IMG/VR virus record: IMGVR_UViG_3300025108_000022
Location: 1 to 64,000 of that record
Length of the DNA stretch: 64,000 nt
Direction: 5' to 3' (one strand)
DNA from: a virus
In this document: piece after piece, positions 1,383-40,523 of the stretch
How positions within the stretch are numbered: position 1 is the stretch's first letter
How the letters are laid out: every line of letters starts with the position of its first letter
The notes under the pieces: model-generated
What the model saw: only the letters and a program-made list of their open reading frames with translations
What the model was told of the DNA's origin: nothing
The model's database searches: none
Made by a program: the position numbers and the translations under genes

Positions 1383-2273
1383 ATGGCGGGTATTACCATT
1401 TTTGAGGTTGGCCCCCGTGATGGGATCCAAAACCTCAAGCATGAGGTAAAATCCGCCGAAAAAATTGAATTGGTGAAATTGCTTGAGGATGCTGGCCTCA
1501 AGGACATAGAAGTGACCTCATTCGTGAATCCGAAGCGAGTTCCCAATATGGCTGACGCCGAAGAGGTATTTACTGCTGTTAGGCTCAATACTTCATATAG
1601 TGTCAAACATTCAGTGTTAGTGCCCAACAAGCGTGGGATCGACCGTGCTAAGGCGGTTGGGGCGACCAATTTCAACATATTTTACTCTCCGAACAGTGAT
1701 TTTAACCGTGAGAACTACGGTTTGACACTGGAACAGATCATCGCAGGGTATGAAGAAGCCCTTGTGGGTGTTCCGACCTCCGATGTTCGGGTGTATATTT
1801 CAATGGCCTTTGGTGGTTGCATAGAGGAATTGTATGACGCAATTGAAACGGGCTTGCGATTCGGGGACAAAATCGTGTTATGCGACACTGACGGCACTGC
1901 ATCACCCTTTGACATCGCTCTTGCTCTTGACATCGCCCATGATTTGACACGAAACATAGCCATGCACCTCCATGTTGGTCGGCATCTATGGTTGAACATT
2001 GAAACCGCATACCTTCACGGTGTCCGAGAGTTTGACGCCAGCATCGGTGGATTGGGTGGTTGTCCGTTCGTGGCGAAGTCCGGTGCTAATTTGGCGACCG
2101 AAGACCTCGTTCAATGGGCGGAGGAAAGAAACATCCCCTGTGCCGTTTGTGCCGAAACACTGAAACCTGCTGTTGAACTGGCAAGCCGCATAAAGAACCC
2201 GACTTTGCGGATCGCGCTCACCAATAAGGTGCGAGAAACAAAGGGGCGGTTTATGCGGGCGGTGAAGAGATGA
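1383..2273 (+). CDS. hmgL: Hydroxymethylglutaryl-CoA lyase-like protein (DRE-TIM metallolyase), candidate auxiliary metabolic gene
   Basis: EVGPRDGIQN, IEVTSFVNPKRVPNMAD, LVPNKRG, HxH and GGLGGCPF..SGANLATED motifs. Start moved to ATG 1383. Confidence 0.88.
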   Translation: MAGITIFEVGPRDGIQNLKHEVKSAEKIELVKLLEDAGLKDIEVTSFVNPKRVPNMADAEEVFTAVRLNTSYSVKHSVLVPNKRGIDRAKAVGATNFNIFYSPNSDFNRENYGLTLEQIIAGYEEALVGVPTSDVRVYISMAFGGCIEELYDAIETGLRFGDKIVLCDTDGTASPFDIALALDIAHDLTRNIAMHLHVGRHLWLNIETAYLHGVREFDASIGGLGGCPFVAKSGANLATEDLVQWAEERNIPCAVCAETLKPAVELASRIKNPTLRIALTNKVRETKGRFMRAVKR

Positions 2274-2770
2274 GCGCATTTGACAGGGCATTCAATCTTC
2301 TAAAAACAGGTTTTGTTCCCTACGCCCATATTCCCGATGTGGTGGAAGCGATGCAGTATGACAACCAATTTTACCACATGGATTGGACTTCGTTTTACCC
2401 ACACTTTAACAATAACAAACACAAACCCGATAGAGCAACACCCACAGGTGAAACACGCCCTTCGCCTGTTATGACAAGAGGTGTGGCGGAAATTGTATGT
2501 GAAAGATGCGGCGAAAATCTAACGGATGGTTTAACGCATGAGCATTTAGATCAGCCACCTAAACGCCACCTTATACACGGAAAAGCCCCCGACGAGGACT
2601 ATGGAGATGAAGTGAACAGGTGGGAGAACAGACATCGTTGCCCCGACGGTGTATCGCCGTGGGATTTGTTCGTTGAGCAAGGTCGCTCTCAAGAAGGCCG
2701 AGCATTAGAAGACGCACAAGGTGATCAATACTGGCGTGAGATGGAGGGGGAAGGGGGTGACTACGAATGA
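2270..2770 (+). CDS. Tagged cargo protein 1, unknown function (CxxC)
   Basis: Begins MSAFDRAFNLLK. ATGA overlap with the upstream stop. Contains CERCG. Confidence 0.8.
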   Translation: MSAFDRAFNLLKTGFVPYAHIPDVVEAMQYDNQFYHMDWTSFYPHFNNNKHKPDRATPTGETRPSPVMTRGVAEIVCERCGENLTDGLTHEHLDQPPKRHLIHGKAPDEDYGDEVNRWENRHRCPDGVSPWDLFVEQGRSQEGRALEDAQGDQYWREMEGEGGDYE

Positions 2771-3723
2771 CCGCATTTGATCAAGCCTTCACCCTTCTCA
2801 AGATGCCCATTGACTGGGACACGGTGACTGAACCTGTTTGGACGCCCGGATGGAGGGCGCACGAAAACGATACAATGGACGGTGAGGCGTCAGCACAGTG
2901 GATTCACCCCGAAACCGGAGAACGCTACGATTTACGCATGGATAAGTGGATTCGCCACATTCTTAAACCAAACGAGGCTGACATTGAGGGAGCGAAACGC
3001 ATGTCCCCCTACATGCGAGAAAGCGGTGAATTGTCCGTGACTCAACCTATGAGCGAAGAAGAGGCCGACGCCCTCGCCGAAACGATGGACACCAGCCGTG
3101 AAGTGCTGGCCGAGTATGGAGATGATCAAGAAAAGGTGGGAGGGACAGCGTTCTTCAATGAAACAGATCCGTTTGGTCGGAATTGGGGACGACTAAGCGA
3201 TGATGAACGGTCAGTCCCCATGCCTATACTCCCAAGAGAATTGCACGGTCTTGGTTTAGGAACGGACATGTATGATTTATTGAACCATTGGGGTGTCAAA
3301 TTGAAGCCGGATGATAACCAAAGCAAACACGCAAGGAGGCTTTGGGCGAGGAATCAAGGGTATGACCGTGATATTGCCGACCAAATGGCGACAGGTATTT
3401 CGGCACAAACCGCCCCGTATCACTCCCTTCTCCGAGAAGCCGTGCGGCGTGTGCGTGAGAGTGGATTGCACCCCTCGTTTGACTTCGATCCTTCTTCACC
3501 GGCTTCAATTGTTGGTTTGCTTAGATTTTGGGAAACGCAGGGATATGATGAGGCAACCGAAATCAAGAACTGGTTGGACGGGGCAGTGGCTTCTAAGAAA
3601 CTCCCCCCACTAACTGACTCCCCACCGTGGATAGAAAGGGGTGGCGATACAAACAATTGGTATGAGAATTACGACAATATGAGGGGCGGCTGGACATGGA
3701 GGGGTCATAATGAACGCCTTTGA
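2767..3723 (+). CDS. Tagged cargo protein 2, GNAT-like acetyltransferase
   Basis: Begins MTAFDQAFTLLK. ILPRELHGLGLGTDMY resembles acetyl-CoA motif A and is followed by DNQSKHARRLW. Confidence 0.65.
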   Translation: MTAFDQAFTLLKMPIDWDTVTEPVWTPGWRAHENDTMDGEASAQWIHPETGERYDLRMDKWIRHILKPNEADIEGAKRMSPYMRESGELSVTQPMSEEEADALAETMDTSREVLAEYGDDQEKVGGTAFFNETDPFGRNWGRLSDDERSVPMPILPRELHGLGLGTDMYDLLNHWGVKLKPDDNQSKHARRLWARNQGYDRDIADQMATGISAQTAPYHSLLREAVRRVRESGLHPSFDFDPSSPASIVGLLRFWETQGYDEATEIKNWLDGAVASKKLPPLTDSPPWIERGGDTNNWYENYDNMRGGWTWRGHNERL

Positions 3724-4411
3724 CTCCGCCTTTGAACTCTTGAAGGCGCAACCTCGTTTTGCTTATCACGGCGGGCATGTTCCTGCTGGTGAACCCCTAA
3801 AGCCCTCCGAAATGGGCGACCACCAACACGCACTCATCAGCACCATGCCTCACAACGAAATACTCGGTCGTGAACACGGTGTGTTCGGGATCCCCATTGG
3901 GTCTTCTAAATTGCCTGTTTCGCAGTTAAGGGACTTCACTGGCATGACGAGAGGCGGAATAGGGCACAACATCATTGATTTGAAGCCTTACATGGATGAA
4001 ACAACCGCTGGCAACATGAAGGTGGCTGACGGTATGGGCAATTTTTATCAAGGGCTTGAAGAAGCAAACCCCGATTTTGAAACACCATACAGTGACGAAT
4101 GGATGCAGGAATTGAAGGACATTATCGCAAGAAAATATGAGGACTTCAATATGCCTTTGAGCGAATGGCAAGGAAAATTGATTGGCGAAAATCAAATTGA
4201 CACTACTATGCGTGACCCTTACTACAACGCAATTCACCTCCAAACACCCGACTGGAATGAACTGACTCTTGAAATACCGGCTGATATGCCGGAGATGAAC
4301 CATGAAACGATTACTCACAGGCAAATAGATCCCGAAGATGTGTTGCCAATGCGTGGCAACAGCATGAGGAACATAAAGCAGTGGATGGCTGAAAGGATGC
4401 GTGATTCATAA
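3710..4411 (+). CDS. Tagged cargo protein 3, possible ADP-ribosyltransferase-like fold
   Basis: Begins MNAFDSAFELLK. Has AYHGG at the N-terminus and ETIT..QIDPEDV near the C-terminus. The fold call is weak. Confidence 0.45.
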   Translation: MNAFDSAFELLKAQPRFAYHGGHVPAGEPLKPSEMGDHQHALISTMPHNEILGREHGVFGIPIGSSKLPVSQLRDFTGMTRGGIGHNIIDLKPYMDETTAGNMKVADGMGNFYQGLEEANPDFETPYSDEWMQELKDIIARKYEDFNMPLSEWQGKLIGENQIDTTMRDPYYNAIHLQTPDWNELTLEIPADMPEMNHETITHRQIDPEDVLPMRGNSMRNIKQWMAERMRDS

Positions 4412-5244
4412 TGACCGCCTTTGACGCCGCATTCTCCATGCTCAAAATAGACGAGGGCATGTGGGAGGAAATCTATGCCCCTCTCTTTGAGGTGTTGGGA
4501 GGGAGAGGTCAAAACCCCCACCGAAAGGCTGGAACGAACTCTCCGCTTGACTTTATGCTGACGAGCGATCTGCCCGAAGAAAGACACTGGCAATTGCAGG
4601 AACCCGACGACTCCGAATACATTGAGAGATTGATGCAAAGTATTCTTGAAGATGGATATATGGGTCGTGATTCTTCACATTGGCGGTGGAGGGACGACAC
4701 ACCCGAACAAGGCCGTGCAAGATACGACGCAAACAAAAGAGGGGAAACGACTGTCGGGAATGTAGCAATCCCAAACATTGGATTTGACAGGCAGGGGTGG
4801 GTCATTGGAGAAGGAAACCACCGAACAGCCGCTTTGCGACGATTAGGCGCACCTTACATTCCCACCTATGCTTCTTCTAATTCTTGGGGGCGCAAAAGCC
4901 AACACCCATATTCCGCCGAATTGCCTATGGGCGAGGACTTGAAGCGATGGATGGGTGCGGATATGAGCGATGAGGATTACCTTAACCACTCCGAAGGTTA
5001 TGGGATTGGGGCAAATGTGGGTCGCCGAGGGATGGGTATGCCGACCTCATTCTTGTTCGGTCAAGAATTGGTTCCCGGTATGGGGCGAATGGTTCCCGAT
5101 TTGCCCGATGGCTTAACTGCGGCTGACATGCCGCTTGCTGAAACAAGACGCTTTGATGGGCATTGGGGCAAAGCAAATGACCCCGAAGGACATTTTTATC
5201 AATTTCAAAACGATCCGAAGTGGAAGGTGGTTCACGATGAATGA
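4411..5244 (+). CDS. Tagged cargo protein 4, ParB/sulfiredoxin-like domain
   Basis: Begins MTAFDAAFSMLK. YIERLMQSILEDG...VIGEGNHRTAALRRLGAPYIP contains the GxHR motif. Confidence 0.75.
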   Translation: MTAFDAAFSMLKIDEGMWEEIYAPLFEVLGGRGQNPHRKAGTNSPLDFMLTSDLPEERHWQLQEPDDSEYIERLMQSILEDGYMGRDSSHWRWRDDTPEQGRARYDANKRGETTVGNVAIPNIGFDRQGWVIGEGNHRTAALRRLGAPYIPTYASSNSWGRKSQHPYSAELPMGEDLKRWMGADMSDEDYLNHSEGYGIGANVGRRGMGMPTSFLFGQELVPGMGRMVPDLPDGLTAADMPLAETRRFDGHWGKANDPEGHFYQFQNDPKWKVVHDE

Positions 5245-5722
5245 CGCCTTTGACACCGCTTGGGAATTGGTGAAAGCACCAATACGAGGAACACAGGACA
5301 AATACTACGATCAAGCCATGCAAGAAGGCGTGATACCTGCAAGGCAGGTTGAAAAGGATCGTAAAGGGGTTTGGGCGAGCGATTCTATGGCTACGGCTCT
5401 TGCTTATGCTCTCGGTGCGGCAAAACCCGATGAAGCCCCCTTAGTCCATTATTTACCACGAAACATAGAAGGCGTTGGTGATTATGACGAATATACGGGT
5501 TATGGTTATTATCCGTTTGATATTCCCGCCGAACATTCACAGGAGATATGGAGAGGGCAACCCTATGCGGATTGGGAAAAGGAAATGAATGACAAGTATT
5601 ATGCCGCTATGGATGCTGACGATTTACCTTTGCCTAAACAACCAACAAGGCATAGATGGAGAGCCGCTATGACCCCATTAGCAAATGAAGCACTTGAGAG
5701 GTGGAATAATGACCGCCTTTGA
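5237..5722 (+). CDS. Tagged cargo protein 5, ART-like domain
   Basis: Likely start is ATG 5237 (MNDAFDTAWELVK). IRGT....AMQEGVIP..GVWASDSMATALAYA matches an ART-like pattern. Confidence 0.55.
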   Translation: MNDAFDTAWELVKAPIRGTQDKYYDQAMQEGVIPARQVEKDRKGVWASDSMATALAYALGAAKPDEAPLVHYLPRNIEGVGDYDEYTGYGYYPFDIPAEHSQEIWRGQPYADWEKEMNDKYYAAMDADDLPLPKQPTRHRWRAAMTPLANEALERWNNDRL

Positions 5723-6989
5723 CCGAGCATGGGAACTCACCAAAGCGTTCCCAAACATGGAATACTGGCACGGGACAACAGCCGACGCCGCCCGACAAAT
5801 CCTTGATGAAGGGCTTGAGGCTTGGTCGTTTGGCGCAGACGACCCCGATGATCCGGAAATGTATTCGCTTGACCGAATGGAAGCCCGAAATGAAGCACCG
5901 GCCATGCTTGCCTTTGACACCACACCCGAACACACTATCCACGATCCAAAAGAACAAGGTTATGACATTGGTTCGGAATATGGGCATTGGTTGGTTGAAG
6001 AACCCGTTTCGCCCGAAAATGTTCGGTTGTTTGCGATGGGGAGCAAGGACATGGACGGGGATGAATGGATTCGGTTTTTGGATATGCTAAGGGCCGCTGA
6101 CAGACTTTCTTATCGCTATCCCGACATGGATGAGGCTTACGCTAACCGTGCTGTGCAAAAGGCATGGGAACTCATCAAGGCTCCGTGGGACATTGACCCT
6201 GCCCCAAATCACGATTATGGTTATGAGGCGGGCAAATTGGGCGAAGTCGCAGGGCCGTTATATTCCGGTGGTGACAGAATACACGACGAGTTCACATACT
6301 GGACACCGGACAAAGAGAAAGCGTTGGCGTATGCCCTCTTTGGTTCGGCTATCCCAACATCCCAAAGCCAAAGATTCGTCACCGAAGGCGTTCCCATGCG
6401 AGAAACATACCCAGCAATCAAGGTCGCACCCGACCCCGGTGTGGATGAACACGGGCGGAATGCCTCGTTTGTCACAGAAGACCCGCAATCAAAGGACTAC
6501 ATTCAAGACCAACAAGAAGGCATGGACGCCGAGTTCATGGATGAAGGCGAATTGTTGGACTGGATTTCTTCGCTAATTCCGGATCCCATGAGTGAAAAAC
6601 CAAATTATGATGTTGAAGCACGGGGTGGGAACCGTATTCCCGGTTTGCCACTTTTGGGGACATCAGCGAAACGACATGGCCGAGAAGCCATTATAGATCA
6701 CATGGAGATGGCCTTAAACAGACTACAACGAGGGGCTTCGGGGCATGTCGCCCTGCCCGATGAACTGTTGCCGCATCTTTCAACCAGTCGTAGTGATAAC
6801 CTCCATGATTTGTCTTTGGATGAAATGGAACAAATGTGGCGAGAGGACTTGTTTGAAGAGTGGGAAAAGAACTACATTCGTTTGAATAAGCGTGGGCATT
6901 GGTTTAATGCCATCCACTTAAACGGCTTAGACCCCGAATGGGATGCCAACAGGGACATGGGTGTTCAATTGCACGAACGGGGGGGTTGA
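5709..6989 (+). CDS. Tagged cargo protein 6, two tandem ART-like domains separated by an internal tag copy
   Basis: Start ATG 5709 (MTAFDRAWELTK). Domain 1: YWHGTTADAARQILDEGL...VEEPVSPENV (Tpt1/KptA-like). Internal AVQKAWELIKA. Domain 2: LYSGG..YWTPDKEKALAYA. Confidence 0.6.
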   Translation: MTAFDRAWELTKAFPNMEYWHGTTADAARQILDEGLEAWSFGADDPDDPEMYSLDRMEARNEAPAMLAFDTTPEHTIHDPKEQGYDIGSEYGHWLVEEPVSPENVRLFAMGSKDMDGDEWIRFLDMLRAADRLSYRYPDMDEAYANRAVQKAWELIKAPWDIDPAPNHDYGYEAGKLGEVAGPLYSGGDRIHDEFTYWTPDKEKALAYALFGSAIPTSQSQRFVTEGVPMRETYPAIKVAPDPGVDEHGRNASFVTEDPQSKDYIQDQQEGMDAEFMDEGELLDWISSLIPDPMSEKPNYDVEARGGNRIPGLPLLGTSAKRHGREAIIDHMEMALNRLQRGASGHVALPDELLPHLSTSRSDNLHDLSLDEMEQMWREDLFEEWEKNYIRLNKRGHWFNAIHLNGLDPEWDANRDMGVQLHERGG

Positions 6990-7104
6990 ACATGGAAGGC
7001 GACTCGTTGGGTATGTTGTTGCTAAAAGGGCTGGGAGCCATGCTCTTAATCCCAATCCTTATCATTTTACTCCCCTTAGCGTGGCTGTATTCGGTGGTGA
7101 TGGA

Positions 7105-7851
7105 GTGACGAGCAACAGTTCCTTTGAACGAGCGTTTTCACTGCTGAAAATGCCCTTTGTTCCCGGTTCAGTGCGCCCTTTGGAGGGCGAGTTCATGGAG
7201 GGCGACGACGACCACGCACCAGCGCAAAAGTTCGTAGGCGACTTCTATGACCCCATAGACGACCGAACTCTCCCTATCAACATTGAACCAGCAAGGGATT
7301 GGATAGGAGAAGACAACCCCTCGCACGGCTTTGGGCGCAAACACAAGCGCATGGATCGTATGGACGCCGCTGTCATTCCTATGGACATGATTGACGAAGA
7401 CCGTGAAAGTGAAATGCAGTTCGGTATGCCTCAAAAGAACCCTTTTGCCGCTATCATTGACAATTTGATTGAACGGGTTTATGTTCCCAGTGATTTGCGA
7501 AGAAGGGAAATGGGGCAGGGGCTTTTGGACGCCTTATTGGAATACCGAACCAATTTCGCAAATAGAGGGCGAATGAAACCGTCCCGTGAAAACACAGGCG
7601 ACATGCTTGGGCTTTTAGCAAGTCGTGGTTTATTTCCCCGTGGTTTAGCACGAATACCCAAAGAACAGAATTGGAATGACCCCGACACACAATACATGCA
7701 CAGCGAGTGGCCGGACAGTGCCCATTGGCAAAACGCCGAAGACGCCAATTTTCCCAACAAAGTTCCTAAACATAGGTGGGAAAAACGATGGAACGAGGCA
7801 GGAAAGCAATACGCAAGAGATCAAGAAGAAATGTGGGGTGATGGGCCGTGA
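7105..7851 (+). CDS. Tagged cargo protein 7, GNAT-like (probable paralog of 2767..3723)
   Basis: GTG 7105 follows a GGTGGTGA SD. SSFERAFSLLKMP tag. VYVPSDLRRREMGQGLLDAL resembles motif A. Confidence 0.65.
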   Translation: MTSNSSFERAFSLLKMPFVPGSVRPLEGEFMEGDDDHAPAQKFVGDFYDPIDDRTLPINIEPARDWIGEDNPSHGFGRKHKRMDRMDAAVIPMDMIDEDRESEMQFGMPQKNPFAAIIDNLIERVYVPSDLRRREMGQGLLDALLEYRTNFANRGRMKPSRENTGDMLGLLASRGLFPRGLARIPKEQNWNDPDTQYMHSEWPDSAHWQNAEDANFPNKVPKHRWEKRWNEAGKQYARDQEEMWGDGP

Positions 7852-8030
7852 GCGCATTCGATCAAGCCTTCGCTTTGCTCAAAAGACAGGAATGTCAGTC
7901 TTGTGATGCACCAACAGAAGAGGAATGTTCCGTTTGTGGTTGGTCTGTGTGTGAACCCGATGGTTCTTGTTCGCACCATAACGATGAGGGCGAGATTGTT
8001 TGCGACGACTGTTTAGAGGGTGATGATTGA
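7848..8030 (+). CDS. Tagged cargo protein 8, small Cys-rich zinc-finger-like protein
   Basis: MSAFDQAFALLK followed by CQSC, CSVC, C..C and CDDC. Confidence 0.75.
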   Translation: MSAFDQAFALLKRQECQSCDAPTEEECSVCGWSVCEPDGSCSHHNDEGEIVCDDCLEGDD

Positions 8031-9412
8031 TGGCCGCATTTGACCGAGCCTTCGCTTTGCTCAAAGAAAGCGCAAGTAAATGGGAATACCGACAAAACCC
8101 CCACGACGAACCCGGTGGCTTCGGTGTCCAAGACTGGGAACTTAACCCAAATAATATGCCCGATGATGGAACGGGTGTCGCTCGTTTGTTCCCAAACCGT
8201 TGGCTGTATTTGCCGGATGGGGAGGAAATGCCCAACCAATACAAAGCCCATTCATACTCAAGAGTTCAACCTTCTCTTGGCCGCAAAACCCAAGCCATGT
8301 TGGCTGATGGTGGATCTTTGCCGGACAATTTTGATGAAGAGGCAATTCAATACCTAAGCAGGGTTGGTTCGCACGAATCCATGCACCAAGCCCTGCACGG
8401 TGTAAAACCGGAGATGGTTCACCAACCAATCATAGGGCACGAAGCAGGGGCGGTTATGGGCGAGTTCAAGGATTGGGGCGACATAAGAGAAAGGATGCGG
8501 TGGCTGAAAAGCCACCCACGCATTGGCGAATCCTCACAACGCCAAATACAAGAGGTGTTGGACGCTTTGGTTGACAAGAACCCCGAAGAACAGGCGCAAA
8601 TAATGGGGCACAGGGCAAGGGGCAACGCTATGAACCAAATGTCAATGCAAACAGAACTTGAGCGACTTCAAGCGGCTGAAAAAGAACTTGAAGCCGAAAT
8701 AGACGAGGTTGAGCGTGAGATATACCGACCAAAAAGAACGACTCAAAGTTTTTTTGACTACAACGATAATTGGGATGCCGAACAAGAAAAGCAAGAAAAG
8801 CAAGAAAGGCTCCGTGAAGTGTATAGACGATACCAAGAGATAGGGGGTCAAATCATGGACATTGAAAGAAAAATCATCAAAGCACCCCTGTATTATCCCG
8901 ATGAGGACTGGGGTGATATGGACGACCCCGACTACGCTGGCCCCACCGAAGGCGGTGCATCGGCACGGGAAAAAGAGAACTTTCCCGATTACATGGAGGA
9001 TCTGATGGCACCAGCAGGGTTCTCCGATGTTTCGTGGCAATCCGAGGACGGAATGGCGAGAGGTGTGGCTCAATTGAACTTTGACACAGGGCAGGTGAAT
9101 GTTCACCACTTTGAGGTCGCAACCCCTGTGAGGGACAGTGGGCTTGGTGAATCATACCTCCGTGAAATGATTCAAGAGATTGAAGCGGATATGATGGGCC
9201 AAGTTGTCCATGACGGACAATTTCATGCCCATGCTACAAAGGTTGAACCCGAAAAAGCGGGCTTTTGGGACAAAATGGTTGACCGAGGTGCTATACACAG
9301 TGCTTCGTCACGAACGAACCCCCGTGTCACCCAAGACGGCAAATACTTCGCTCCTAAGATCAGCAGTGATAAATTAGAGCCGTGGGATTGGTTGGGCGAA
9401 GACGACATTTAG
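8030..9412 (+). CDS. Tagged cargo protein 9: HExxH metallopeptidase-like domain, coiled coil and GNAT domain
   Basis: MAAFDRAFALLK. SHESMHQALH plus downstream HEAG. Internal KIIKAP. HFEVATPVRDSGLGESYL...AGFWDKM. Confidence 0.65.
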   Translation: MAAFDRAFALLKESASKWEYRQNPHDEPGGFGVQDWELNPNNMPDDGTGVARLFPNRWLYLPDGEEMPNQYKAHSYSRVQPSLGRKTQAMLADGGSLPDNFDEEAIQYLSRVGSHESMHQALHGVKPEMVHQPIIGHEAGAVMGEFKDWGDIRERMRWLKSHPRIGESSQRQIQEVLDALVDKNPEEQAQIMGHRARGNAMNQMSMQTELERLQAAEKELEAEIDEVEREIYRPKRTTQSFFDYNDNWDAEQEKQEKQERLREVYRRYQEIGGQIMDIERKIIKAPLYYPDEDWGDMDDPDYAGPTEGGASAREKENFPDYMEDLMAPAGFSDVSWQSEDGMARGVAQLNFDTGQVNVHHFEVATPVRDSGLGESYLREMIQEIEADMMGQVVHDGQFHAHATKVEPEKAGFWDKMVDRGAIHSASSRTNPRVTQDGKYFAPKISSDKLEPWDWLGEDDI

Positions 9413-9414
9413 CG

Positions 9415-10986
9415 TTATCGTGGGCCAGCCTTGCGTGATGAAATCACATCATCAATGCGGAGAATCATGGTCGCTGTTTCAACAGCCGACTTCAATGCCT
9501 GTGCCACAACACGCTTTGGCTCATATACACCGGCTTCACCCATGTGCATGACGCCACCAGCCAATACATTGACACCGTGATGATGGTTTCCTTCGGCATG
9601 TGCCTTGCGTAGTGCCATCATTTCATCAACAGGGTCAAGACCGCCGTTTTCAGCAAGTGTTCGTGGAATGACCTCAAGTGCCTGTGAGAAAGCCTCCAAA
9701 GCCATGCGGTCACGACCACCGATAGTGAGAGCGTGATTAGCGAGATCCCTGCTTAGAGAAGCATAGATTGACCCGCCACCAGTGAGAACTTCGCCGTCTT
9801 CATAGGCAACAGCCACTACACCGACCGCATCGTCAAATGCTCGTTCAATTTCTTCAACGAATGGTGCTGTGCCGCCTCGCAGAAGCAAGGTGACAGCCGA
9901 AGAGTTCGGTGTGGAGAAGAAAGACATTGGCAATTCGCCCACTTTCTTTTCCGTGAGGCTTTCACAGGAACCAAGAGCCTCTTCAATATCCTCAAGGTTG
10001 TTGATGATGCCCGCACCCGTAGCACGGGAAAGTGCCTCCATGTCGGAACGCTTGACCTTTTCAAGCCCAAAGACGCCAGCCTTTGACAAATAATGCTTGG
10101 CGAGGTCGTCAATTCCCTTTTGACAAACGACAACGGTTGCACCGCTGTCAACAATTGCTTTGACAAGTTCACGGATGTAGCCTTCTTCTTGCTCTAAGAA
10201 AGCAGTGATTTGGCTCGGATCAGTGATTTGAATGTTGGCGTCCATTTCAGTGGACTTCACTTCAAGGGGGAAATCAATGAGAAGCACTTTTCCGTTGGAA
10301 ATGCCCGCTGGCATCCCGCTGTGCGCTCGCTCTTTATCAACGATAATGCCGCTGATGAGTTCGCTGTCATGTGCGTCGCCACCAATAGCCTTCACCACAT
10401 TGATTTGAGTTAGATCAACAGCCCCGTTTTGGGCAAGTGCCTCCACTGTATCAACGCAAATACCACCGAGGTGGTCTTTGATTGAAGCAGATGATTTGCC
10501 AGTGAGTGCTGTGGTTGCGATAGCAAGTAAGCGATCTTCGGTTTTTTCGGCATAAGCGTCCAATTTACCTGCTATGAACTGCCCTCCTTCACGGAATGCC
10601 GAACAAATCGTGGTCGGGTGGATGTTTTGGGTGATGAGTTCTTCGGACTTCTTGAGAAGTTCGCCGGAAAGAACAACCGCACTGGTTGTCCCATCGTAGC
10701 ATTCTTGCTCTTGAGTCTTTGCGACTTCAATAATCATCTTCGCCGCAGGGTGATCGATGTCCATTTCACCGAGGATGGTTGCTCCGTCGTTGGTGATGAT
10801 AACATCGCCACCTTCGTCAACGAGCATTTTGTCCATGCCTTTCGGGCCGAGAGTGCTTCGCACTGCGTCAGCGACCGCTTTTGCGGCGGCGATGTTGTTT
10901 GACTGTGCCACTCGTCCGTGGCTTCGCTCGGTTCCTTCTTTGAGAATGAAGATTGGTTGCTGTCCGTTTGGCATCATGTTGCTCAA
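9415..10986 (-). CDS. ths: Group II chaperonin (thermosome subunit)
   Basis: [53 protein letters not shown] and ILRIDDVI motifs. The start may be ATG 10977. Confidence 0.96.
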
Positions 10987-11107
10987 TCACTGCTCATCAT
11001 CAATGGCTTATCAATGTTGTGAGGCTTAACAGCCTTAACATAAAAAAGAACGGGTTCGGGATGCTTTCATCGGCAGTTATTTGAAACCCGCTTTACATAG
11101 CGCACCC

Positions 11108-12598
11108 ATGCCGAGTATGGGAGGACGACCTTCGCCGCCCAACGGCGGGCCTCGGATTGGGTTATACCCCGACGCCCAACCTCCAAACGAATACGGTGAA
11201 ATTGAAGTTCCCGAAGAAGTTCAAATGGAGGACGGTGACTCATGTTGCGACGATGCAAAGGAAAAATTGGCACAGTCTTGGAGTGATAAAAACAATTTTT
11301 CACCCAGTCAATACCAACAATTGAGAAGCCAATTAGATTCAATGGACTGTGGTGAGTTCCGAATGATGTTGGAAACGATACCGGGCACAGGGCCGGGGAC
11401 TGACATGGCTAACCATGAAAGCAACATTAACCGCGATCAGAACATTTTAGACGAATGGGACGAATGTGCCAGCCGAACAAGCATGGGGATGAAATATGCC
11501 TCGGCAGATCCGTTTGAGGCCGCATGGGACATCATGCAAAAGCAAATCGGGCGTGAGGACTTTACCTATCGGATGGCCGTTCAACCCCACTTGATGTCAA
11601 ACAAGTTCGGCAACATGCCTCCCGAATTGGGATTGAGAACCACTGGTAAATTGCCAATCAAAGAAGCCATCCGGCACCTTGAGAACTCTCAAAGCATTGA
11701 GGACTTCGCACGCACGAAGGGTTGGGAAAGTGCCGAAGATGTTGGATTGAAATTGGAGGACTTTGACGATGAAGATCAGTTCTATGAAGCCCAAGCCGAA
11801 ATGGGCGTTGGCTATGACCCACTAGATCACTTGGCGGGCGAATATCAGTATTTCCGCCCTTATCACGCTAAAGACATAGCAAGAAGACCGGATGGAGGCA
11901 TTACAGATGCAGAAATCCTGCGTGTCAATATGGAGGGGATGGGGCACCCCAACGAGTATAGAGAAGCATTCCCAGCGGTGGCAAGGGACACTATGCTTGA
12001 AGGACTTGACTCAAGGCTTGAGGCAGGTGCGACAAAAGCACCAGTGTCCACTGGCTCAATAAGTGCGATGGGACAAGGCCCGATGATCGATGTCAACCCT
12101 GCGTTTGCAGGAATGGGGCTGGGATATTCAACCCTCGCATCCCTCTTAGAAAACACTGGGAGGCTTCAAGAAAATTACATGAGTGCTGGGGGTCTTGCTA
12201 CATTACAAGGTCTTGGTCGCAAATTGGATGAGGCGGGGATTGGGCACAACATGAGTATATCACCTATGGCCCAAAGGCCCGTGATGAATGCCCAGCAACA
12301 ATTGAACAATTGGCAAGAAAGCAACGCTCGCTATCCCCATCAAGGAACCGCTGAAATGTCAATAGACGACGGAACGCAATTGACACATCAAGGGACACCG
12401 GACAAATTAGGCTACATTACACATTCAATCAATCAGCAATTGGACAATGAACGGCCCTCAACGATTCAAGAATTGAAAGCCATGCTTGAAGCGTCAAAGC
12501 GGCGACGGGGAATCATGGGGGGTATGCCGCCGTCAATGAACAGGTTCCCTCCATTCTCGGCACCTTCGTGGCAAGAACGCATATCGTGGGGTGAATGA
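11108..12598 (+). CDS. Cargo protein 10: Cys-containing N-domain, internal tag and C-terminal GNAT-like domain
   Basis: Internal DPFEAAWDIMQK at ~11507. IDVNPAFAGMGLGYSTL resembles motif A. Confidence 0.6.
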   Translation: MPSMGGRPSPPNGGPRIGLYPDAQPPNEYGEIEVPEEVQMEDGDSCCDDAKEKLAQSWSDKNNFSPSQYQQLRSQLDSMDCGEFRMMLETIPGTGPGTDMANHESNINRDQNILDEWDECASRTSMGMKYASADPFEAAWDIMQKQIGREDFTYRMAVQPHLMSNKFGNMPPELGLRTTGKLPIKEAIRHLENSQSIEDFARTKGWESAEDVGLKLEDFDDEDQFYEAQAEMGVGYDPLDHLAGEYQYFRPYHAKDIARRPDGGITDAEILRVNMEGMGHPNEYREAFPAVARDTMLEGLDSRLEAGATKAPVSTGSISAMGQGPMIDVNPAFAGMGLGYSTLASLLENTGRLQENYMSAGGLATLQGLGRKLDEAGIGHNMSISPMAQRPVMNAQQQLNNWQESNARYPHQGTAEMSIDDGTQLTHQGTPDKLGYITHSINQQLDNERPSTIQELKAMLEASKRRRGIMGGMPPSMNRFPPFSAPSWQERISWGE

Positions 12599-13075
12599 AT
12601 GAGCGCAATTGATGTGGGTTTCAGTCTGTTGAAAAACGACGATTTAGACGACATACCCGCTGAAAACAAAGGCGGGGATTGTTATTACAATTCATTCAAT
12701 TACATGTGCGCCAATCCCAATCACACACTTGTTCATGCCCAAGTGACCCCACTCATGGGGCCGCTGGCTGGTCGCCCTTACGGGCACGCATTCACCACTT
12801 TCATGGGTGAAGACGGCAGGAAGATGGTTCACGACCCCAGTGCCGATGGAGGCAAAGGAATGACAATACCTGCCGATGTCTATTATGGGATAGGGCAAAT
12901 CGGTGCCCCAAACATGATTGAATACAGCCATGAAGAAATGTTGCGCCAAATCCAAGACACCATGCACGCAGGGCCGTGGGATCCAATGACTGAACAATGG
13001 ATGCACAGTTCCGACGAAGACCGTCAAAAAAAGCGTGAGATGGATGGCGAATTGCTTGACGATGGTGAGGAATGA
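12599..13075 (+). CDS. Tagged cargo protein 11, transglutaminase/papain-like Cys-His-Asp protein
   Basis: MSAIDVGFSLLK. GDCYYNS...GHAF...VHDPS gives the triad in the expected order. Confidence 0.6.
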   Translation: MSAIDVGFSLLKNDDLDDIPAENKGGDCYYNSFNYMCANPNHTLVHAQVTPLMGPLAGRPYGHAFTTFMGEDGRKMVHDPSADGGKGMTIPADVYYGIGQIGAPNMIEYSHEEMLRQIQDTMHAGPWDPMTEQWMHSSDEDRQKKREMDGELLDDGEE

Positions 13076-14163
13076 TGGTTGAGCCTTTTGACATCGCAGG
13101 TTTGAAAGCCAATCCCGACTGGATGCGAGGTAAAGCAATACCCGGTTATGTCAAACACCCCGGAAACAAAAACAAACCTCACTACAACACTCTTGGTCGG
13201 TATGCCGCCCAACAAGCAGGAACCACAGGTATTCAAGACCCTGCAAGCGGGCCGGGTGGCTTCATTCAAGGTATTTTGCCCGAAGGGACGAGCCAAATGA
13301 ACGAATGGGATGTCGGCCTCCATAACTTGACACAACAAGTGAAGCAGGGTGGGTTCACTGTCCCATTTGACGAAGGGCCGATGGATAAACAGCGTTGGAT
13401 GGACGACATACGAGGAACCACCATATCGCAAATCAATTTGGGGAACTTGCCAAATCAAGGTTCACTGAACAACACTCTCCATCGTTTGCGACAAGGCTTG
13501 GACTGGAATGACATGACTCCCGAAGAAAAAGTGGCTTTTGCGAGGATTTACTACAAAAACAAGAAAACTGGTCGGCAAGGAGGCATAAGAGCCGGAACTG
13601 GCTACAACAACAACACTGCTGGTTCACTCCGTCCTTTCAATGTGGGACAGGTGGACGACCTATCACATTACGCCCCTTTGTTTGCTGACACTGAATTGAG
13701 GCAAGGTGATGCCACAGAAGCCTTACGAGAATGGGATGTGGACACCGACAAATTGTTGACTTCGGATCCGCCCTATGAAGGAGAACCTTCAACCTATTCG
13801 GGGAACTTTGCACTACAAGGCTATTTGCGAGAATTACAAGAACGCTTAGAAGAAGGACAGCCAATGATTGCCTTTGACAGTGCCGAAGTCGCTCCATTGT
13901 ATGCCGACATCGGACTTGAACCGCAAATTATGAATCGGCCCGACAACACAGCACCAACAGGGAAACACCGAGGAATAAAACCGGAAATGGTTGCTTTTGG
14001 GAACATTGAGGGCTTAGAACCTCTTGAACTCTTGAGTCGTTTCGGTCATAACAAATATGCACCCGATTCAAAGCAACAGTCCGAATTATTGGACTTTGAA
14101 CTCTCCGAACCCCAAAATGCCTTTGAACATGGGTGGGCTGTGCTGAAACAGGAGGAACACTGA
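13072..14163 (+). CDS. Dam-like (D12-class) amino-DNA methyltransferase homolog with a C-terminal tag copy
   Basis: KHPGNK (motif X-like), DPASGPGG (motif I-like) and SDPPY at 13765 followed by Y..NF. C-terminal NAFEHGWAVLK. Confidence 0.7.
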   Translation: MMVEPFDIAGLKANPDWMRGKAIPGYVKHPGNKNKPHYNTLGRYAAQQAGTTGIQDPASGPGGFIQGILPEGTSQMNEWDVGLHNLTQQVKQGGFTVPFDEGPMDKQRWMDDIRGTTISQINLGNLPNQGSLNNTLHRLRQGLDWNDMTPEEKVAFARIYYKNKKTGRQGGIRAGTGYNNNTAGSLRPFNVGQVDDLSHYAPLFADTELRQGDATEALREWDVDTDKLLTSDPPYEGEPSTYSGNFALQGYLRELQERLEEGQPMIAFDSAEVAPLYADIGLEPQIMNRPDNTAPTGKHRGIKPEMVAFGNIEGLEPLELLSRFGHNKYAPDSKQQSELLDFELSEPQNAFEHGWAVLKQEEH

Positions 14164-16205
14164 TGGCGGCACCTTTTGACTGGAAACGAACGAGGGCTGG
14201 TGAGAAACACATAGGTCTTGGGAATACCCCGAAGGACGACTCCATATCCACTTTCCGCAACATAAGTCAAGCCAGTCCCGGTCGTGATTTGCGTTTGCCT
14301 CCTGCACTACGCCCACTTCACTTCGATCAGTTCCCATCAGATCCAAAAGACCCAACACGAAGAGGGCCGGGTATGGTTGCAGTTCAAAGAAGATTGGTCG
14401 GCAGTGACGGCAAATCAAAAGGAAAACACAGTGTTGAAGCGGCGACTCAAGTTCCTTTACTTGACCCGATGGTGTCAATTGACAGGACAGCCCAACAAGA
14501 CGCTTGGCACGGAAACAAAGCATACAGGGGAGAAATACAAGGAACTCCGAGGGCACCGGGCAGGACGCTTCACGCACCCATCAGTGGCACTTTGCCAATA
14601 TCGGAGTCCCAACAATACCTCATGGGTGATGCTTTGCCCGAAGATGTTCACGATTATGATGTTGAACTTGATAACAACGGAAACGCAAGAGTCCTTGACG
14701 AAGAAGGACAGCAAGCGGATTTGGTGACATACCGCCCGTTCTTTTACGATTCGCAAGGCAATATCGTTTATCGGGACGACACTGCTGTGATGGAACCCGA
14801 AGATCATAAACAATTGGATATTCACCCCCTGTTTGGACGAAGAACAAAGACGCAAACCGAACACATGGGTCGCCCTCTCCCTCACCAAATTACAGGAACG
14901 GGCGACTTCGTTATGTTCCCAGCAGGGCCAGTCGGTGAAATGGCCGAACCTATACCCATCAGTCAAGGAACACGGTTTGCAGGAAACACTGGTGTCGTGA
15001 CCCCTCACGGCATGTATTTTCCTAAAAACATTGACTGGACGAATGTTCAACGAGCCGAAGGGCTGGCTGAACTTGGTGCTGTTCTCATTAAGGCAATTTC
15101 AAGCGATCCCGACGATTGGGAGAAAATGTATGATTGGGACACCAACCTCGGTGGCGGTTTTCCGTCAGCGAAAGAAAGTGGAACAAAAAGAACGGGCGGT
15201 GGCGGTTTTCAAGAGATTGCTGATTGGGTCGCCAACAATCCCGACCAAATGCGTGCGGCTATTGGAGGCCGTGGTGCAAAGGCGAGAAAGGTGGATTGGC
15301 CGTTAAAAGGTCGTCAAATCGCTGAATGGGACGACATAATGGAGGACGAAGGTGTCCCCGAAATTGACAGGCTGGATGAAGCCCTCAAAACACATTATGG
15401 GTATGGGAGAGCAAAAGCCATGCCCGGTCTTTCAATTCTTGACACTTCTCCACTTGCTTGCCCTTATTCAACACCGGAAGACCCGCTTAGTGCGTGCGGC
15501 AATTGTTATGCGTGCAAAAATCATTTCCTTTTCAACAATGCTCAAAACAACATGTGGGGCAGAACACGAATGTTGCATAATGACCCAATGCGCTTGGCTT
15601 CGGCTTACAAAGAGTCACTGTCCCCAATGTCGGCTCAATACAAAATGACAAGGAGAAGCCGACCACCCGTGAGAGGTAAAGTCAGTGGTGATTTGACACC
15701 GGGTGAATTGTCAATGCTTGCTGACATTATGGAACAACAACCTGATCATGACAAGCAAGACCTTTGGCTTGCTTCAAGGCAATATCCCACGATTAAGAAC
15801 TTCTTAGATGCAAGAGGATGGGATGATTGGAACCCCGATAATATCCGACTCCGCCTTTCAATGCCCGGAAAGAAAACACATAACGATTTGCCCGGTGGGG
15901 ATTTAATTTCGGAATTGCTCACCCATCCCAATGTCGTGCCCTCGTCTTATGACACCGTTGCTCCGGGCTATGTCATTTGCCCGAAAACCGAAAAAGGCAA
16001 CACACCGCAGTGCAATTCAAACATAGATCCATTAACGGGACAAAAGGGTTGCAGGGCTTGTTGGAGCGATAAGCCGGTTGTTTATGGGCACCATGACGGC
16101 AAGCCTTCAAGGGTATTTTCACCCGAAGAAAAAGCGATGGGTCAAATGGAGTCAAGCCACAATACCCCGACTAATACTCGTCGTTTGCCGATGTTTAGGG
16201 AATAG
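14163..16205 (+). CDS. Two-part protein with a C-terminal phage Gp88-like Cys-rich domain
   Basis: Start ATG 14163. Junction GAVLIKA. CP...SACGNCYA, VRGKVSGD, WLASR, PDNIRLRLS and CP...CRACW...VYGHH. Confidence 0.6.
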   Translation: MAAPFDWKRTRAGEKHIGLGNTPKDDSISTFRNISQASPGRDLRLPPALRPLHFDQFPSDPKDPTRRGPGMVAVQRRLVGSDGKSKGKHSVEAATQVPLLDPMVSIDRTAQQDAWHGNKAYRGEIQGTPRAPGRTLHAPISGTLPISESQQYLMGDALPEDVHDYDVELDNNGNARVLDEEGQQADLVTYRPFFYDSQGNIVYRDDTAVMEPEDHKQLDIHPLFGRRTKTQTEHMGRPLPHQITGTGDFVMFPAGPVGEMAEPIPISQGTRFAGNTGVVTPHGMYFPKNIDWTNVQRAEGLAELGAVLIKAISSDPDDWEKMYDWDTNLGGGFPSAKESGTKRTGGGGFQEIADWVANNPDQMRAAIGGRGAKARKVDWPLKGRQIAEWDDIMEDEGVPEIDRLDEALKTHYGYGRAKAMPGLSILDTSPLACPYSTPEDPLSACGNCYACKNHFLFNNAQNNMWGRTRMLHNDPMRLASAYKESLSPMSAQYKMTRRSRPPVRGKVSGDLTPGELSMLADIMEQQPDHDKQDLWLASRQYPTIKNFLDARGWDDWNPDNIRLRLSMPGKKTHNDLPGGDLISELLTHPNVVPSSYDTVAPGYVICPKTEKGNTPQCNSNIDPLTGQKGCRACWSDKPVVYGHHDGKPSRVFSPEEKAMGQMESSHNTPTNTRRLPMFRE

Positions 16206-17635: not shown

Positions 17636-18364
17636 ATGGCAACATGGATGCTTGCTGGACACATATTGATGGGTTCGGCCCAATTAGCGGCCTATGTGTA
17701 TCGGCTGATTAGACCACATAAAATCGGCATATTCGGCCCATCGTTGGCTGGCAAAACCACCCTCGATCAATACTTGACAGTTCCGGGGGACATCGATCCG
17801 ATACCCGTTGAATTGAGAACCACGCATCCTGTGAAGAACGGTGCCTTTCAAACCCCCCACGCAACCAAAAAACAAGTGCGGTGGAAAGGGGAAAAGACAC
17901 CAATAATGACAGCCGACATCGGGGGACAATCCCAATACTGGAACCTGTGGGCCGAAGACATGATTGAGCGAAACACAAGCGTGGTTTTCTTTGTTGTTGA
18001 CGACCGTGTTGGTTGGTCGCAACCAGCCATGCAAGAAGCCGTTGCCGGTTTCAAATACCTCACCGATATTATCGTCAATCATAGGTTTCCCAGCACTTTC
18101 TCACGAAGCATGAAGAAAAAAGCAAAAAAATACAAACCAAAGGTCGTTTGCTTAGTTCTCAACAAAATGGATCTGTGGTGGACAAACGAGTCCCAGCAGA
18201 TGTGGGATATGGGTTTGCGTCGTCAACACCCGATGGTGATGCCTTTTCAAGAAGATATGCGGAGGCTTAGAAAATCCGCAGTGGCGACAAATGTTGAGGC
18301 TATGGCGGCTCAATACGGGCTGAATGTGGAGGGTGCCGTGATAAGGACACTTAACATGATTTAG
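17636..18364 (+). CDS. Arf/Sar-like small GTPase (Ras superfamily)
   Basis: G1 GPSLAGKTT, G3 DIGGQSQYWNLW, VFFVVD, G4 LNKMD and G5-like AMAA. Hydrophobic/amphipathic N-terminal extension. Confidence 0.88.
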   Translation: MATWMLAGHILMGSAQLAAYVYRLIRPHKIGIFGPSLAGKTTLDQYLTVPGDIDPIPVELRTTHPVKNGAFQTPHATKKQVRWKGEKTPIMTADIGGQSQYWNLWAEDMIERNTSVVFFVVDDRVGWSQPAMQEAVAGFKYLTDIIVNHRFPSTFSRSMKKKAKKYKPKVVCLVLNKMDLWWTNESQQMWDMGLRRQHPMVMPFQEDMRRLRKSAVATNVEAMAAQYGLNVEGAVIRTLNMI

Positions 18365-20472: not shown

Positions 20473-21183
20473 ATGACGGGGAGGCGTGTTCGCAGGAATT
20501 GTCCTTTTTGTCAAGACGACAGGCGTGATCAATGGGAACAACAAATCCGCATTGGATTGCTTGAACCCGCCGAATTAGATTTGACCCATGACTGGCCCGA
20601 AGGCACTGCACATCGCCACATGAGAAGGCATTCCGGCGAGTATCATAACAATAGCAATACAGAATGTCCTCTATGCACTCATCCCGAAAGAGCCAACATT
20701 GAACACGCTGTCCTTGAGCGTCTTGTCAGTATGGACGACATGGCGACTGAATTGGACATAAGCGAAGAGGCTCTTGCTCAACACATGGAAAATCACACTC
20801 AACCTATCATTCAACGACAGGTCAACATGGAGATTATGCCCGCCGCCATTGACAGCGCACGCACGGCCATGCAACAAAGTGAGCGAAACCTCCAACGACT
20901 TAATGGACTCTTTAACGACCACTTGGATCTGATGCAAGAGGAACGGATGGAGTCGGGGACACTTGACTACAAGGGATTAGACACCGCAGTAAAACTGCAC
21001 CGTGAAGTCCGTGATTCATTGACCGAGATTGGCGAGTGGCTGGAAAAGGCCGAGGCCGTTGGTGGCAACGAACAGGTCAGCGTCTTGACAGTCATACAAG
21101 CACACTTCTCCGAAAAGTCGCCCGAAGAGTGGCGAGTCATGCGTAAGGCGTTAGCCGAAGCGGGGGTGCTTGAAGATGGCTAA
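20473..21183 (+). CDS. Putative DNA-binding protein with two CxxC...HxxxH units plus coiled coil (terminase small subunit candidate)
   Basis: CPFC...HRHMRRH and CPLC...QHMENH. Helical C-terminus. Confidence 0.5.
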   Translation: MTGRRVRRNCPFCQDDRRDQWEQQIRIGLLEPAELDLTHDWPEGTAHRHMRRHSGEYHNNSNTECPLCTHPERANIEHAVLERLVSMDDMATELDISEEALAQHMENHTQPIIQRQVNMEIMPAAIDSARTAMQQSERNLQRLNGLFNDHLDLMQEERMESGTLDYKGLDTAVKLHREVRDSLTEIGEWLEKAEAVGGNEQVSVLTVIQAHFSEKSPEEWRVMRKALAEAGVLEDG

Positions 21184-21586
21184 TGAATGTGCAACGATGA
21201 ACTGTGAAGACAAATCCGACAAAGACGATTTCGCATACTGTGGACAAGGCAATTGTTCCTCATGCGGTGGTGGATGCGGTGATGATAATTGCTCAAAGTG
21301 CAACCGCCGTCCAAAATGGGGTTCTAAGAAGGCATCCATTGACCGAGCGTTCAGCACAGGTTGGTCTATCATCAAAGCAAAGACACCTCGCTTTTGTCCC
21401 ATGTGCATGTCTTCGGAATTAGAACTTGACACGAAAGAGGATAACCTGCGGGAATTGAAAGAGGGAAGAGGTTCATATCGCTTTGATAGAGATCCTGCTT
21501 ATTTGAGGCGTGAAGAACAAAAAATCATGCAAGGCCCGAATTATTGGGGCTATTGCTTGAATTGTGATCATGAGATGGAGGGTTAG
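21176..21586 (+). CDS. Cys-rich protein with internal tag
   Basis: CGQGNCSSCGGGCGDDNCSKC, then RAFSTGWSIIKAK, then CPMC...CLNC. Confidence 0.7.
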   Translation: MANECATMNCEDKSDKDDFAYCGQGNCSSCGGGCGDDNCSKCNRRPKWGSKKASIDRAFSTGWSIIKAKTPRFCPMCMSSELELDTKEDNLRELKEGRGSYRFDRDPAYLRREEQKIMQGPNYWGYCLNCDHEMEG

Positions 21587-22865: not shown

Positions 22866-22870
22866 TTATT

Positions 22871-27580: not shown

Positions 27581-27586
27581 TTTCAA

Positions 27587-40496: not shown

Positions 40497-40523
40497 ATAC
40501 CATGACATAAAATGGGTGAGATA

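Follow-up and report, generated by a model that had tools for sequence, protein, structure and literature searches.

The 64,000-nucleotide stretch of DNA analysed here (positions 1 to 64,000 of IMG/VR virus record IMGVR_UViG_3300025108_000022, hereafter the window) belongs to a magrovirus-type tailed virus of archaea. About 16 mostly unrelated proteins of this virus carry one and the same 10-12-residue peptide, A-F-[DE]-x-[AG]-[FW]-x-h-h-K (x, any residue; h, hydrophobic), which we call the tag; the remainder of each protein is referred to as its cargo. The tag marks a large, fast-changing accessory protein set encoded just upstream of the head genes. We tentatively favour the view that it is a dock-and-cut label for virion cargo, which would work like the capsid-targeting sequence (CTS) of phage T4. 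Docking and cleavage are suggested by the constancy of the tag against its variable cargo, the placement of the tagged genes ahead of the terminase gene, the tags found at domain junctions, and the presence of h-h-K in head proteins.

A shared peptide tag on unrelated proteins

A six-frame regular-expression scan of the window yielded 14 motif matches, all on the + strand. Ten of these strong copies begin open reading frames (ORFs), three are internal (11504, 22623 and 23297) and one is C-terminal (14113) (Table 1). Every N-terminal copy follows directly after Met plus one residue and stands behind a GGAGG- or GGTGA-like ribosome-binding site (n = 10). A preliminary description of this DNA had placed N-terminal tags at 2270, 2767, 3710, 4411, 5237, 5709, 7105, 7848, 8030 and 12599, internal copies at ~6150 and ~11507, and a C-terminal copy at ~14115; inspection of the sequence located all of them, the C-terminal copy at 14113-14148. 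Within the range covered by that description (2270-16205), 12 of the 13 + strand genes are tagged, and two further full tags (22623 and 23297) lie beyond it.

We built a hidden Markov model (HMM) of the tag from the 14 matches, which it scored at 16.7-21.7 bits. The next-best scores were 6.2 bits at 21347 (8.9 bits with a wider HMM) and 2.3 bits at 6162, and the best minus-strand noise reached 6-6.5 bits. Counterparts of the weaker copy at 21347, SNDRAFRTGWSVVK, are present in four related genomes or loci (L087, L088, G001 and G005). At the DNA level, a degenerate pattern for the motif gave 11 matches compared with 0.01 expected from 100 shuffles. A basic 183-aa ORF at 21949-22500 (+) additionally shows a degenerate tag, NAFLAGLEFIKE, near its likely internal ATG start, which was left unscored by the HMM.

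Within the tag, identity between copies was 0.65, 0.76 and 0.40 at codon positions 1, 2 and 3, respectively, and ~0.3 in the flanking DNA, while the Leu and Ala codons varied freely. The low third-position identity, the free codon variation and the background-level flanks therefore indicate that selection acts on the peptide and not on a DNA repeat. As a peptide, the tag is best read as a short amphipathic docking helix with a hydrophobic face formed by F, A, W/F, L and L, ending in Lys. In both AlphaFold2 (AF2) models, those of the 5709 and 4411 cargos, it appears as a separate low-confidence helix with a break at the Lys.

Constant tag and variable cargo in related viruses

We compiled a tag set from the window, 14 loci and two near-complete relatives, G001 (99.9 kb, 94% complete) and G005 (107 kb, 100% complete), applying a threshold of ≥8 bits. 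The preliminary description had predicted that an HMM scan of relatives would find variable cargo behind a constant tag, and the resulting 130 tags agree with this prediction. Their consensus is A (84%), F (96%), D (60%) or E (26%), any residue, A (85%) or G (12%), W (82%) or F (17%), any residue, [LIV], [LVI] and K (94%), usually followed by Met or Ala and then by Pro in 31%. N-terminal tags are the most frequent (96), followed by internal (24) and C-terminal ones (10). Behind this consensus, the 119 cargos of at least 30 residues, which range in length from 30 to 580 residues, fell into 61 BLAST clusters, and the 14 cargos of the window were distributed over 14 different clusters. The claim that similarity mostly stops at the Lys thus stands at the BLAST level; two or three of the window cargos (those of 3710, 5709 and perhaps others) may be distant paralogues with an ADP-ribosyltransferase (ART) fold.

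In loci around thermosome homologs that are 59-89% identical, the number of tags per locus is 8-13, and tags and thermosome gene invariably occupy opposite strands. We rejected adjacency to the thermosome as a clue to the tag because the thermosome gene of G005 is not next to the array but ~16 kb away. In G001 and G005, a strict DNA pattern of the tag matched a single strand only, and a reversed control pattern gave 0 matches. Strong HMM matches in these two genomes are confined to one block, comprising, in this order, an HMGL-like gene, the tag array, a GP88-like gene, a GTPase operon, genes for Cys-rich and disordered proteins, and the terminase gene. The HMM scan found no tag in the replication module of either genome. 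In the tail module the same scan gave a single match, of 9.6 bits, in G005, and past the 64-kb mark of G001 it gave only a weak match (5.8 bits) at ~75.8 kb. No strict tag match occurred in a 78-kb fragment that has a capsid gene and lacks a chaperonin gene, and five extra records, all of them fragments, contain neither a chaperonin gene nor, by the strict pattern, a tag array.

Small tagged ORFs (75-180 aa) were also seen at ~2200-4500 in L056, L058, L060, L075 and L076, 6-8 kb upstream of the capsid gene. The capsid proteins of these loci are ~80% identical to that of the window, and their tagged ORFs lie closer to the head genes than any in the window.

Tags at domain junctions and C-termini

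Two tagged ORFs of the window, 5709-6989 and 8030-9412, are two-module fusions with a second copy of the tag at the junction. In relatives, each half of both fusions is encoded as a separate tagged ORF. Alignment identified the second module of 5709-6989 as a stand-alone ORF in L081, starting MTAFDRAWALLKAP, and both modules of 8030-9412 as separate tagged ORFs. The notion of modular, swappable units put forward in the preliminary description fits these arrangements. Of the four junction copies seen, every one keeps h-h-K-[AS]-P, but two have lost the A-F-D part and in a third it is altered. This pattern, anecdotal with four cases only, suggests that the tag may be bipartite, with one half for docking and the other carrying the cut site.

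C-terminal tags are conserved in at least three families; that of the 13072 ORF family is kept at its position in five relatives. If cut, proteins tagged in this way would lose only 1-5 residues, and therefore docking, not leader removal, would be the core function of the tag, with cleavage conditional on position.

Predicted folds of the cargo

None of the window cargos matched an entry in Pfam or PHROGs; among their neighbours, clear matches were restricted to the untagged GP88-like ORF, the thermosome and the HMGL-like gene. When 108 cargos were compared with HMM libraries, only a D12 methylase (one relative's cargo, E 1.2e-6), GNAT, PARP and zinc ribbons were found.

The largest cargo family has P-Y-H-G-T after the tag, and its K-M-P-Y-H-G-T ART-like group numbers 14 members. 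The His and Thr of the family, corresponding to the H-G-[ST] NAD-binding motif, are invariant in 12 sequences. Searched against the PDB, the family profile matched Tpt1/KptA (E 5.6e-4) and also DarT, diphtheria toxin and exotoxin A. Language-model neighbours of the ART-like cargo included DUF4433, which we take to be the DarT family, Tox-ART-HYD1 and PARP. The AF2 model of the ART-fold domain at 5709 had a predicted local distance difference test (pLDDT) value of only 62; VIA-align of this model, a search independent of Foldseek, listed Tpt1 at Z 6.1 (root-mean-square deviation 3.5, 96 residues aligned) and DarT at Z 5.4, with ART folds in almost every one of its first 36 rows. These results support a predicted ADP-ribosyltransferase fold of the Tpt1/DarT type for the 5709 cargo and the K-M-P-Y-H-G-T group. 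The 3710 cargo possibly contains a distant ART-like domain as well, its match to the ART family profile being confined to the tag and the YHG region.

A different fold is predicted for the 4411 cargo. All aligned homologs (42/42), down to 29% identity, are tagged, and the family alignment places the start of the cargo domain directly after the tag Lys. The E-G-x-H-R motif (EGNHR), which answers to the G-x-x-R / D-G-x-H-R-like motif of the ParB/sulfiredoxin superfamily, is invariant in 43 sequences of the family. The AF2 model reached a pLDDT of 86.9, with the tag as a detached low-confidence helix at residues 3-11, and the top Foldseek rows were sulfiredoxin (Srx), ParB, Noc, SbnI and KorB, with weak E-values of 0.2-4. 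A ParB/Srx fold is thus the supported prediction for this cargo. Foldseek returned nothing at E ≤0.001 for either model; the homogeneity of its top rows and the VIA-align list were used in place of such a match.

The cargos had been described as effector-like enzymes of several kinds. For the ART and ParB/Srx folds this description is supported, and for GNAT weakly so: the second module of 8030 gave a PDB profile match to acetyltransferases at E 0.03, and Pfam GNAT was matched at E ~1e-3 in one relative. The metallopeptidase (HExxH, 8030), methylase-like (DPPY, 13072) and papain-like (Cys/His, 12599) labels are motif-only readings. The DPPY family of 13072 had no Pfam or PDB match and its family profile found no methylase; single-sequence PDB searches for 4411, 8030 and 13072 gave nothing useful. 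The predicted ART, ParB/Srx and, weakly, GNAT folds belong to classes seen among injected phage proteins, for which T4 Alt and polyvalent proteins are parallels in the literature (PMC5512222).

Conserved Lys sites in head proteins

In the major capsid protein, L36, K37, D39 and P41 are invariant across 21 homologs (64-96% identical), giving DLLK37 followed by [AS]D[SA]P, and K37 (codon 41963-41965) is a candidate propeptide cleavage site. The protease-scaffold protein, for which we prepared alignments of 23 and 18 sequences, has h-h-K invariant at four places in the 18-23 homologs. K21 (DF[IL]LK/S; the slash follows the Lys) ends an N-terminal peptide just ahead of the protease domain, K176 (Y[TS][LI]LK/M) lies exactly at the protease/scaffold junction, and K300 (YVIK) and K320 (NVIK) lie within the same, otherwise variable, linker. 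Prohead proteases elsewhere cut at propeptide ends, protease/scaffold junctions and scaffold linkers, as in HK97-type assembly, and HK97 gp4 is reported to cut its capsid protein after Lys103. Invariant h-h-K at propeptide and domain boundaries fits cleavage after the tag Lys, which we consider plausible.

Two other ORFs of the head module, at 31278-32696 and 35507-35857 (+), begin with N-terminal D-x-L-[IL]-K peptides, SMDDALIK/LAP and ATADLLK/EMV, that resemble the propeptide ends of the capsid and protease proteins. ATADLLK/EMV is kept in most relatives, with ELAK in some.

We also considered the tag as a copy of the C-terminal tail of the scaffold. For this virus the idea is not supported: the tag HMM found nothing in 40512-41840, and the conserved tail, LDGWRALEEL, is in a different register. 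Co-folding of a tag-bearing N-terminus with the capsid and protease-scaffold proteins gave a score of 0.00, which, obtained without controls, is evidence neither for nor against docking.

A proposed dock-and-cut label and its alternatives

In the mechanism that we propose, the tag helix would bind one common partner in the assembling procapsid, and tagged proteins would thereby be co-assembled as internal cargo. The S78 prohead protease would cut after h-h-K, the same protease appearing to trim the capsid protein, itself and the scaffold at h-h-K. This cut would free N-terminally tagged cargos and split two-module fusions at their junction tags. The cargo, including ART-fold, ParB/Srx-fold and GNAT-like enzymes, zinc-ribbon proteins and basic disordered proteins, would then exit the head with the DNA and act early in the host. 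In its most extended form, the tag would be a position-independent "dock here, cut here" code. Each genome would use it to load ~15-20 interchangeable proteins into the capsid, out of a pool of at least 60 cargo families that includes ART, ParB/Srx and GNAT-like enzymes, for release by the prohead protease. This would amount to virion-borne effector delivery in archaeal viruses, modular like polymorphic toxins and like polyvalent proteins split into tagged units. We regard this extended form as possible and hold it with added reserve.

Several points weigh against packaging and cleavage. We infer, rather than observe, the docking partner, encapsidation, cleavage after the Lys and host delivery. 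Most cargos have no recognisable function, and a head already containing ~100 kb of DNA would have to accommodate some 15-20 cargo species per genome. By tag HMM, neither the capsid protein nor the scaffold contains a tag-like stretch, the h-h-K end being all that they have in common with the tag; moreover, h-h-K is a common tripeptide, and its invariance in these proteins could be structural. Finally, the C-terminal copies imply that cleavage cannot be the universal purpose of the tag.

The main rival explanation, which we judge unlikely, holds that the tag docks to a partner outside the capsid, such as a host factor, the viral thermosome or another viral hub, and that the tagged proteins act in the cell and are never packaged. 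Like a generic short linear motif, the tag occurs at N-terminal, internal and C-terminal positions, and classical groove-binding helices have the F-x-x-x-W-x-x-L spacing seen in the tag. The thermosome gene lies inside the array in the window, and encapsidation is a step that we infer. However, the distance of ~16 kb between thermosome and array in G005 argues against the thermosome as partner, and no chaperonin is known to rely on a sequence tag. The tagged genes also run in the same direction as the head genes and lie directly upstream of them, and the terminal Lys of the tag matches the invariant h-h-K of the capsid and protease-scaffold proteins. That Lys, together with the h-h-K sites in the presumed substrates of the protease, would also suit a cleavable propeptide holding potentially toxic enzymes in an inactive or unfolded state until the viral protease acts, a zymogen-type control without any addressing. 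Such a role would be in keeping with the start of the ParB/Srx domain directly after the Lys and with the ART-fold cargos, which could be toxic. We nevertheless find it improbable, because a detached 10-residue helix is unlikely to inhibit dozens of unrelated folds, C-terminal tags cannot act in this manner, and zinc-ribbon and disordered basic proteins are tagged as well.

A nucleic-acid feature, either a cassette-swapping recombination site or a translation-start enhancer with the peptide as a by-product, is very hard to reconcile with the data. Tags do stand at gene starts in a tightly packed operon, and gene content differs among relatives, but third codon positions are only 40% identical, Leu and Ala codons are free and the flanks are at background, and the internal and C-terminal copies are far from start codons. 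It has next to no probability that the tagged ORFs form one diverged paralogous family of which the tag is the best-kept part. In several cargos the similarity does extend beyond the tag, as in the 14-member K-M-P-Y-H-G-T group; for the tagged set as a whole, a single family is refuted by the 61 BLAST clusters, the differing folds of the two cargos tested (ART and ParB/Srx), cargo lengths of 30-580 residues and the occurrence of the tag at either protein end. The preliminary description's picture of mostly unrelated cargo behind one tag is supported.

Gene setting of the array

Magroviruses, which lack a cultured host, rank with the most abundant archaeal viruses in surface ocean waters, and those bearing a thermosome form group A of Philosof et al. 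2017 (PMC5434244). Hundreds of IMG/VR contigs have a capsid protein that shares 77-99% identity with that of the window. The tag array lies upstream of, and on the same strand as, the terminase, portal, protease and capsid genes, and this synteny is kept in G001 and G005. The packaging genes had no blastn match in a phage collection.

Table 1 Tagged ORFs and neighbouring genes of the window
Feature	Position	Strand	Evidence and conservation
HMGL-like TIM-barrel gene (hydroxymethylglutaryl-CoA lyase / pyruvate carboxylase type), untagged	1383-2273	+	Pfam E 1e-19
Tagged ORF, 166 aa, starts MSAFDRAFNLLK	2270-2770	+	Ortholog in L082; no Pfam/PHROG match to cargo
Tagged ORF, 318 aa, starts MTAFDQAFTLLK	2767-3723	+	Tag regular expression/HMM
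Tagged ORF, 233 aa, starts MNAFDSAFELLK, FAYHGG after tag	3710-4411	+	Tag regular expression
Tagged ORF, 277 aa, starts MTAFDAAFSMLK, predicted ParB/sulfiredoxin-fold cargo	4411-5244	+	Model and homologs
Tagged ORF, 161 aa, starts MNDAFDTAWELVK, cargo a BLAST singleton	5237-5722	+	Tag regular expression, clustering
Two-module tagged ORF, 426 aa: tag, predicted ART-fold domain (YWHGT), junction tag AVQKAWELIKAP at 6150-6185, second domain	5709-6989	+	Alignment, fold tests
Tagged ORF, GTG start, MTSNSSFERAFSLLK	7105-7851	+	Ortholog in L082
Tagged 60-aa Cys-rich (zinc-ribbon-like) ORF, GTG start, SAFDQAFALLK	7848-8030	+	Tag regular expression/HMM
Two-module tagged ORF, 460 aa: tag, HExxH module, coiled coil, degenerate junction tag IMDIERKIIKAP at 8852-8887, GNAT-like module	8030-9412	+	Alignment
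Thermosome subunit (group II chaperonin), untagged, inside array on opposite strand	9415-10986	-	Pfam Cpn60_TCP1 E 1e-162
505-aa ORF, internal tag ADPFEAAWDIMQK at 11504-11542	11081-12598	+	Internal position kept in L081, L083, G001
Tagged ORF, 158 aa, starts MSAIDVGFSLLK, conserved Cys and His residues	12599-13075	+	Tag regular expression, alignment
363-aa ORF, C-terminal tag NAFEHGWAVLK at 14113-14148, four residues ahead of stop, conserved DPPY	13072-14163	+	Tag regular expression/HMM
GP88 family (PF17338) 680-aa ORF, untagged, Cys-rich, last gene of array	14163-16205	+	Pfam E 6.6e-6; syntenic in G001, G005
Cys-rich 138-aa ORF, weaker internal tag RAFSTGWSIIK at 21347-21379	21170-21586	+	6.2 and 8.9 bits
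Cys-rich 125-aa ORF, internal tag KSFDAGWSVVK at 22623-22655	22488-22865	+	Tag regular expression/HMM
558-aa ORF: acidic N-terminal part, tag NDAFEDAWSLVK at 23297-23332, long Lys/Arg-rich disordered part	22862-24538	+	Tag kept in L087, L088, G001
Large terminase	start 29836	+	
Portal	32677-34485	+	
S78 prohead protease fused to scaffold-like C-terminal half	40512-41840	+	Pfam Peptidase_S78 E 2.6e-9
HK97-fold major capsid protein	41855-43021	+	Pfam SU10_MCP and Phage_capsid

The HMGL-like gene, which may be an auxiliary metabolic gene, directly precedes the first tagged gene; it has the same place in G005 and is found elsewhere, and inverted, in G001. At the other end of the array, the start of the GP88-like ORF overlaps the stop of the C-terminally tagged gene, whose last codons hold the ribosome-binding site of the GP88-like ORF. 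A small GTPase-like protein is encoded at 17636-18364 (+), with a weak match to Pfam MMR_HSR1 (E 5.5e-4) that lies below the family cut-off. Its gene is part of a membrane-protein operon that separates the array from the Cys-rich tagged genes, and its counterparts show 65% identity in G001 and 51% in G005. Directly upstream of the terminase gene, 24535-29839 (+) encodes three large low-complexity proteins: one Pro/Gln-rich (675 aa), one Ala/Gly/Pro-rich (342 aa) and one charged (750 aa). The charged protein has an N-terminal tag-like peptide, LFSHVWNHVVKAP, under the HMM threshold. All three could be internal head, core or DNA-condensing proteins.

Comparison with known systems

The magrovirus literature that we searched does not mention the tag motif, and we found no paper linking capsid targeting to archaeal viruses. 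The principle is already known from T4 and giant phages; novel features here are the tag sequence itself, its Lys-type site, the scale of the system, the free positioning of the tag and an archaeon as host. With nothing but sequence to go on, a shared tag would single out proteins that are probably carried into the cell and are hence candidates for host take-over or anti-defence, and it would serve as a means to find such proteins in any related genome. If the dock-and-cut reading is true, the logic of capsid targeting and propeptides extends from T4-like and giant phages to archaeal viruses, where it is larger and more modular. A 10-residue loading-and-release tag for HK97-type capsids could also help to package foreign proteins.

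In T4, the otherwise unrelated proteins IPI-III and Alt reach the prohead core by means of a ~10-residue N-terminal CTS, which the prohead protease then cleaves off; Alt, an ADP-ribosyltransferase, enters the host together with the injected DNA (PMC5512222, PMC9026906, PMC3012670). The magrovirus tag is likewise one short N-terminal peptide on otherwise unrelated proteins of one virus (10 in the window, 96 of 130 overall), and, as with Alt, the largest magrovirus cargo family has a predicted ART fold. The two peptides appear dissimilar in sequence. T4 gp21 cuts after Glu, whereas the implied magrovirus site is after Lys, and the magrovirus protease matches Pfam S78 (HK97 type) and not the T4 type. 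In contrast to the handful of such proteins in T4, there are ~16 per genome here and at least 61 cargo clusters across relatives. The magrovirus tag also differs from the CTS in its internal and C-terminal copies and its archaeal host, and its targeting role is putative.

Polyvalent proteins of phages and conjugative elements combine ART, ParB, GNAT, zincin-peptidase and methylase domains and are encoded beside portal-terminase genes; packaging and processing have been proposed for them (Iyer et al. 2017, PMC5512222). The tagged genes share their portal-terminase packaging context, and 5709-6989 and 8030-9412 are similarly fusions, of two domains each. Unlike polyvalent proteins, which have 2-15 domains per polypeptide, most magrovirus cargos are single-domain ORFs, each with its own tag. 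The shared junction and leader peptide is a magrovirus feature not described for polyvalent proteins, and of their domain types, ART and ParB are the folds supported here.

Encapsulin cargo-loading peptides are short, occur at either terminus of unrelated enzymes and dock to the inner face of an HK97-fold shell (PMC7355545, PMC8049743). The magrovirus tag resembles them as a short peptide on unrelated proteins at either terminus, its binding to the capsid being putative. Encapsulins differ in being compartments of the cell that lack DNA, a portal and a maturation protease; the loading peptides remain uncleaved and are dissimilar in sequence to the tag. The prohead protease of the giant phages SPN3US and phiKZ acts at a short consensus in many internal head proteins, trimming propeptides that in some cases have only 20-24 residues (PMC10052503). 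Their consensus, by contrast with that of the magrovirus tag, is A-x-E, their propeptides are not one shared sequence, and their protease belongs to a different family.

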